From positions 215,450,001 to 215,514,000 of the forward strand of contig OZ024740.1 of assembly GCA_964016885.1 (NCBI GenBank): DNA of 64,000 nt, given 5' to 3'. Under the pieces are notes generated by a model. It saw nothing but the letters and a program-made list of their open reading frames with translations, had not been told where the DNA came from and searched no databases. The position numbers and the translations under genes are program-made. Of this stretch, positions 46,351-46,588 are shown in pieces (position 1 is the stretch's first letter; every line of letters begins with the position of its first letter). Source of the stretch: Eledone cirrhosa (lineage: Eukaryota).

Positions 46351-46401
46351 AGTTTCAGAAGATCCCGTTAAGGGTGAAAGCAGCGATTCTTTGCTTAAAC
46401 T
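46351..46401 (+). ncRNA. Hammerhead ribozyme with closed stem III and a U4>A core mutation
   Basis: agttt-CAGAAGA-tccc-gttaa-gggt-GAAA-gcag-cgattct-ttgc-TT-aaact. Confidence 0.6.
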
Positions 46402-46588
46402 TTAATCTGTGATTTTAATATATATATATATATATATATATATATATATATATATATATATATATATATATATATATATATATATATATATATATATATA
46501 TATATATATATATATTAAAATCACAGATTAAAGTTTAAGCAAAGAATCGCTGCTTATATATAATTATTATTATTATATATATATATAT

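Follow-up and report, generated by a model that had tools for sequence, protein, structure and literature searches.

Inverted flank copying across a (TA)n tract in the Eledone cirrhosa genome and its relation to neighbouring element ends

In a 64,000-nt stretch of Eledone cirrhosa DNA (contig OZ024740.1; the whole stretch is referred to here as the window), sequence lying to the left of a long (TA)n tract reappears in inverted form on its right, close to the end of a hammerhead-bearing repeat. The locus raises the question of how the inverted copy was made and whether the repeat beside it played any part. The initial annotation read it as an inverted target-site duplication, in which a nicked strand folds back within the self-complementary tract, copies its own flank and then switches to the RNA of the neighbouring element.

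The palindrome and the repeats around it

The inverted copy is real. The arms at 46378-46417 and 46516-46555 are complementary at 40/40 positions around a pure 98-nt TA tract, giving a perfect palindrome over the whole 178 bp (46378-46555). The earlier split into 42 bp and 95 bp describes the same palindrome with the TA boundary placed differently; the measured values are 40 bp and 98 nt. A search of the window for a 33-nt arm pattern gives exactly two occurrences, against none in 100 shuffles, and as DNA the palindrome folds into a single long hairpin (z = -21). Beyond the right arm, whose outer join has 1 nt of microhomology, the order reported initially was found again, namely a TA-rich spacer at 46556-46588 and then the fixed end of the hammerhead-bearing repeat at 46589. 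The features of the region are as follows.

46055..46417, plus strand: left half of the host repeat, a putative non-autonomous Helitron-like composite with its 5′ tip missing in the window copy; common to paralogues L002-L030
46351..46401, plus strand: motif resembling a type I hammerhead, from PLE family B and captured by the host repeat (stem pairing)
46378..46417, plus strand: left (original) arm, with a private G at 46411
46418..46515, no strand: (TA)49 centre, the putative fold-back primer; unrearranged paralogues mostly have 10-38 nt of TA
46516..46555, minus strand: right arm, copied locally from the left in inverted orientation; matching at 40/40 positions, with the G variant and the direct TA join
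46556..46588, no strand: AT-only spacer of 7 nt TA, (ATT)4 and 14 nt TA; either a return to the host junction or a PLE-B terminus stub
46589..46947, minus strand: PLE-like family A insertion (element A), fixed end at 46589 pointing left
46676-46776 and 46851-46951: inner inverted arms of element A, 95% identical
46850, plus strand: candidate hammerhead core of element A (motif pairing)
46960..47035, no strand: 76-bp insert between TA runs, with 2 hits among the fetched loci
47089..47229, plus strand: right half of the host repeat, with a 16-nt hairpin and then CTAG before T at its end (paralogue comparison)

What had been called a flank is indeed copied in inverted form, but it belongs to a high-copy repeat and not to single-copy target DNA: the query 46296-46418 returned 761 first-look candidates genome-wide, 40 of which were scored. 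Paralogues define a composite host repeat of about 650 bp, with TC after A at the 5′ end (16/20 hits to the 5′ motif) and a hairpin and CTAG before T at the 3′ end (13/13 motif hits, some of which are repeat fetches of the window). A 5′ TC following A and a 3′ hairpin followed by CTAG before T are features of non-autonomous Helitrons, and by these termini the host repeat fits a non-autonomous Helitron-like element. A PIF1-like helicase piece lies near a Helitron-like end at L175:2487-3026 (minus strand) and is a possible autonomous partner. The empty state seen in paralogues consists of the arm, a short TA run, ATT, TA and the right half, and its TA-ATT-TA junction has 1,043 exact matches. Relative to this state the window tract contains three additions: the inverted arm, element A and the 76-bp piece. 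We interpret the last two as having inserted separately into one TA hot spot.

The host repeat carries a piece of the tail of PLE family B, from which the left arm sequence derives. This tail lies about 940 nt downstream of an ORF with RT/GIY-YIG-like motifs in L164, L207 and L099; YxDD, a CxCx5C linker and C-terminal GIY-YIG-like motifs were found upstream of it in L207, L164 and L231. Pfam searches with four pieces gave a single sub-threshold RVT_1 hit (1/4). The ORF motifs agree with the description of Hydra-clade PLEs in section 11 of PMC8557442, and by its RT YxDD, CxCx5C and GIY-YIG-like motifs family B is a probable Hydra-clade-like PLE. Its ends are TA-anchored, and the terminus is (ATT)n-AC-TA in 18/19 cases. 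Stems I, II and III of the motif at 46351-46401 pair in a script check; the core reads CAGAAGA instead of CUGANGA, and nearly all copies seen carry this change at the normally conserved U. The motif is absent from the MFE fold (z = 0.04), MFE folding did not recover the element A hammerhead either, and an Rfam scan of 43000-64000 returned no hammerhead, solely sub-threshold microRNA-like hits on simple repeats.

The search with element A gave 2,091 candidates. Its hammerhead lies upstream of a fixed end that abuts a microsatellite, and 28/31 fixed ends abut CA/TA. In L038, L041, L050 and L058 a common junction leads into an opposite-strand A-rich stretch upstream of the hammerhead; in L041, the only locus with a linked RT homologue, this stretch leads to the homologue, which is antisense to the hammerhead. 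Judging from this arrangement, a fixed inverted pLTR may be present in the master copy, or its hammerhead may lie in antisense. Dating the arm relative to element A is uninformative because the element has about 2% private changes, at which identical arms have a probability near 0.2 even at equal age.

Inverted copies at TA tracts in the sampled genome

The right arm is a local copy because a rare variant is common to both arms. Both carry G at position 46411 where the family has T; the G-form pattern has 32 exact hits genome-wide, 2 of which are the window arms, and the T-form pattern followed by TA has 6,750 matches. The outer junction of the window occurs 78 times genome-wide in micro-inserts that look RNA-derived. 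Twenty of these loci were fetched, and the 19 besides the window are PLE-B micro-inserts with G in 0/19 and with the host-type join in none where the arm end is present. The outer junction was considered as a special stop or cleavage site and rejected, as junctions are spread along the tail and the window's lies 19 nt from the predicted cleavage site.

The window junction has 66 fold-back matches genome-wide with centres of up to about 66 nt, the first 40 of which were fetched (matched loci). Over 574 comparable sites the two arms at these loci share 11 substitutions and show 9 arm-specific ones, against 0.08 and 23, respectively, expected for independent copies; placing the arm ends by alignment biases towards identity but leaves the shared changes unaffected. 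Copied arms also reproduce private deletions (L280, L282). In about 17/40 the copied arm joins without TA. These data bear out one part of the initial annotation, namely that the right arm arose locally, by fold-back and priming within self-complementary TA.

How common such copies are was assessed in 158 evenly spaced 10-kb stretches (1.579 Mb). Raw hits were obtained in 24 of 1,479 TA-containing blocks versus 4 of 2,955 shuffled pairs. Ten of the 24 were dropped (seven degenerate microsatellites, two palindromic PLE units and one diverged pair of repeat copies), leaving 14/1,479 TA blocks (about 1%, or about 9 per Mb); two of those kept, L081 and L249, correspond to repeat ends and might represent palindromes of an element. 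Among blocks lacking TA 0/1,952 were kept (p = 7e-6 for TA versus non-TA), both raw hits there being dropped under the same rules, although one of them, L231 (192/201), could be a true fold-back. Fold-backs are thus TA-specific and occur in about 1% of TA blocks in the sampled genome. Arm identity in the kept class is 88-100% and the copied arms range from 11 to over 200 bp; most are unmatched in the rest of the fetched DNA, and many copy non-repeated DNA. The rate of about 9 per Mb extrapolates to roughly 27,000 fold-backs genome-wide. The window locus is an instance of this general TA fold-back mutation and is ordinary when taken alone.

Several related arrangements were seen. The window holds a second case, with arms at 57270-57326 and 57833-57884 around about 506 nt of TA; these are identical save for a 5-nt duplication in the left arm. 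Five loci (L279, L284, L286, L287 and L290) show several rounds of folding back or arm copying within one TA tract. Truncated PLE-B junctions are mirrored across a TA tract at C1:111591680-111591841 and C1:51943969-51944204 of G000, and a chimeric junction likewise in L204; these are likely fold-backs of whole insertion ends.

Snap-back synthesis as the probable source of the copy

The copies are local, inverted and TA-centred, and mostly lie without an element end beside them. The right arm of the window was probably made by snap-back of a free 3′ end in (TA)n, independently of the neighbouring element, a reading to which we give a probability of roughly 0.65. A break or stalled end would arise within the TA tract through cruciform cleavage, a replication error or an abortive PLE nick. 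The free 3′ end inside (TA)n would fold back, pair with itself and prime synthesis along its own strand, copying the flank in inverted form as in SD-MMEJ-type snap-back. The extended end would then unwind and rejoin the other end through TA. A folding replication flap, of the kind described in the available part of PMC13334657, could be an alternative source of the same product.

Templated insertion by snap-back at a broken TA tract would correspond to a known repair signature, which is the best reading by analogy with described systems. Insertion by snap-back SD-MMEJ starts from a double-strand break and depends on Pol theta. In the available part of PMC5728401, snap-back on a TA/AT inverted repeat is among the most frequent SD-MMEJ indels. 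That system resembles the present class in its hairpin priming on an inverted primer repeat, its short inverted flank copy, its rejoining to the other end and its frequent use of TA/AT as the primer repeat, here represented by the self-complementary (TA)49 and by a TA-specific class. In contrast to the engineered breaks of those fly assays, with primers within about 30 bp, the events described here are germline and involve long TA tracts and arms of 11 to over 200 bp. TA repeats have also been reported to break and to be repaired by Pol theta MMEJ (PMC13645644); these cruciform-prone break sites supply their own microhomology, as the tracts here would, but the setting is cancer ecDNA and the term "fold-back" is absent from the main text of that source. 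Among the repeats in the neighbourhood, hammerheads, TA targeting, inverted truncated copies and the family B CxCx5C recall the inverted pLTR insertions of Hydra-clade Penelope elements as far as these are set out in PMC8557442 and PMC3846280. There the inverted sequence is that of the element, mostly head to head, whereas in the window the copied sequence is a flank, lies tail to tail with its original across TA and includes a local variant. A search of literature consisting mostly of papers outside subscription, without supplements, found no prior description of TA-centred flank copies or of retroelement-coupled snap-back.

ODIRA-type template switching involves a 3′ end that folds back, or changes template, and later returns. 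The same course is described for small inverted triplications, which have breakpoints near microsatellites (PMC13334657, as far as available); these are DUP/IN/DUP structures with duplicated non-repeat flanks and a link to flap endonuclease loss, whereas only TA is duplicated around the inverted piece here.

Some observations run against snap-back. The return point in the window is not clean because host paralogues lack the (ATT)4 spacer: at least two ATT units at the host junction were found in 0 paralogues, against the 1,043 matches with a single ATT, and the spacer is one change away from the PLE-B terminus. In addition, the outer junction is common to the 78 micro-inserts, though junctions are spread over many positions; the microhomology at the outer join is limited to 1 nt; many arms are longer than the roughly 30-bp primer distances of SD-MMEJ; and the arm is fused to a truncated element in 4/40 matched loci.

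The class would be a natural germline record of fold-back repair, in which many events copy non-repeated DNA and create new long hairpins. It would thereby allow snap-back synthesis at TA repeats to be measured in an animal germline, both in rate and in length spectrum.

Element ends and other explanations

It is possible, though unlikely, that (TA)n is cut on both strands by a PLE nuclease; one end would then prime cDNA, and the other would snap back to copy the host flank before being joined to the incomplete cDNA, whereas an abortive cut would leave only a fold-back. For the window this would mean that the far end primed the cDNA, that the near end snapped back and that (ATT)4 is a minimal PLE-B terminus with one C-to-T change, an account that seems rather unlikely. 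It draws on four matched loci in which the arm is joined, directly (L269, L281, L289) or after 34 nt of TA (L291), to the truncated start of a piece of another family running away from it; the fixed end or ORF direction of these pieces points away from the arm, the reverse of the geometry in the initial annotation. An inverted piece with a short (ATT)n-AC stub is recurrent in PLE-B inserts, and cleavage and extension of both strands by a PLE protein have been described in vitro (PMC11167929, available part). Against this, truncated-start fusions on the copied arm occur at 0/11 non-TA outer ends of the random events (those of the 158 stretches), the T-ending (ATT)n motif also turned up in 8 instances outside PLE-B tails, and the same arrangement would result if a fold-back formed later next to an insertion already present. 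If true, tens of thousands of TA-centred palindromes in the genome would stem from PLEs. If PLE nucleases initiate fold-backs, this would further account for the fate of the second DNA end during PLE integration, which is left unvalidated in the available part of PMC11167929.

The model in which the folded strand copies its flank and then switches to element A RNA is improbable for the window and largely refuted as a general rule. Strand and direction are compatible with continuation into element A at 46589, and beyond the copy in each of the two window cases (46378 and 57270-57884) there is TA and then a recurrent element end. A 33-nt stretch including (ATT)4 nevertheless intervenes between the right arm and element A. 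The association with element ends, the absence of which the initial annotation had named as decisive against it, was not found. Of 31 element A fixed ends the window copy alone has a TA-centred inverted flank within 450 nt, giving 0/30 for the others; L048 was left out as its end is missing, and the 29 searched loci are the copies most like the window's.

Nor is there an excess over base rates. A repeat end lies beside TA in 1,016/2,958 flanks (34%), or in 44-48% where the other side is already a repeat end. Random events have a recurrent repeat end beyond the arm in 3/14 cases, to which a looser search adds L224, and 4/16 of their TA-abutting ends are repeat ends (p = 0.60 against 34%). In the matched loci the figure is 13/23, which gives p = 0.41 against the conditional base of 44-48% and p = 0.03 against the unconditional 34%, with the copy side mis-assigned by the script in L282 and L292 at least. 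The order arm, TA, proximal element end was seen in 0/7 fold-backs within the same host repeat. Two of these (L273, L280) go directly back to the right half of the host repeat; the others return to it after a second short copy (L287), a short AT-rich insert (L307) or a PLE stub with its fixed end distal (L289), or continue elsewhere (L296, L297). One further direct-return locus was listed. A retroelement-coupled inverted target-site duplication is not supported, and the element end beside the window palindrome is likely a neighbour and not a cause.

An independent inverted PLE-B micro-insertion into the tract, later brought into agreement with the left arm through a template switch within the quasi-palindrome, is quite improbable. 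It would account for (ATT)4 and for the outer junction shared with 78 inserts, and L164 has an unmatched G/T pair across TA; but it requires two events, many fold-backs copy non-repeated DNA and have no RNA donor at all, and the private deletions of L280 and L282 are reproduced in the copies. A sequencing or assembly artefact at a long TA tract, suggested by the 100% identity of the window arms, is most improbable given the diverged arms of the class, the arm-specific changes in the matched loci and one outer junction of the L125 event that contigs span in two runs from a single sample (depth 13.5 and 7.8), which is probably the source sample and not independent. From the diverged arms we argue that the class is biological.

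Elsewhere in the window, a 23-kb tandem array of period 45 with strong strand skew occupies positions 1-23408. Further palindromic repeats ending in TA lie at 48725-48840, 48926-49572, 49987-50221 and 55214-55791 and have the appearance of the usual PLE-type inverted footprints. Decayed pieces of PLE-type RT and nuclease, with 32-41% identity to family B proteins, are found at 52773-53779 and 59082-60010.
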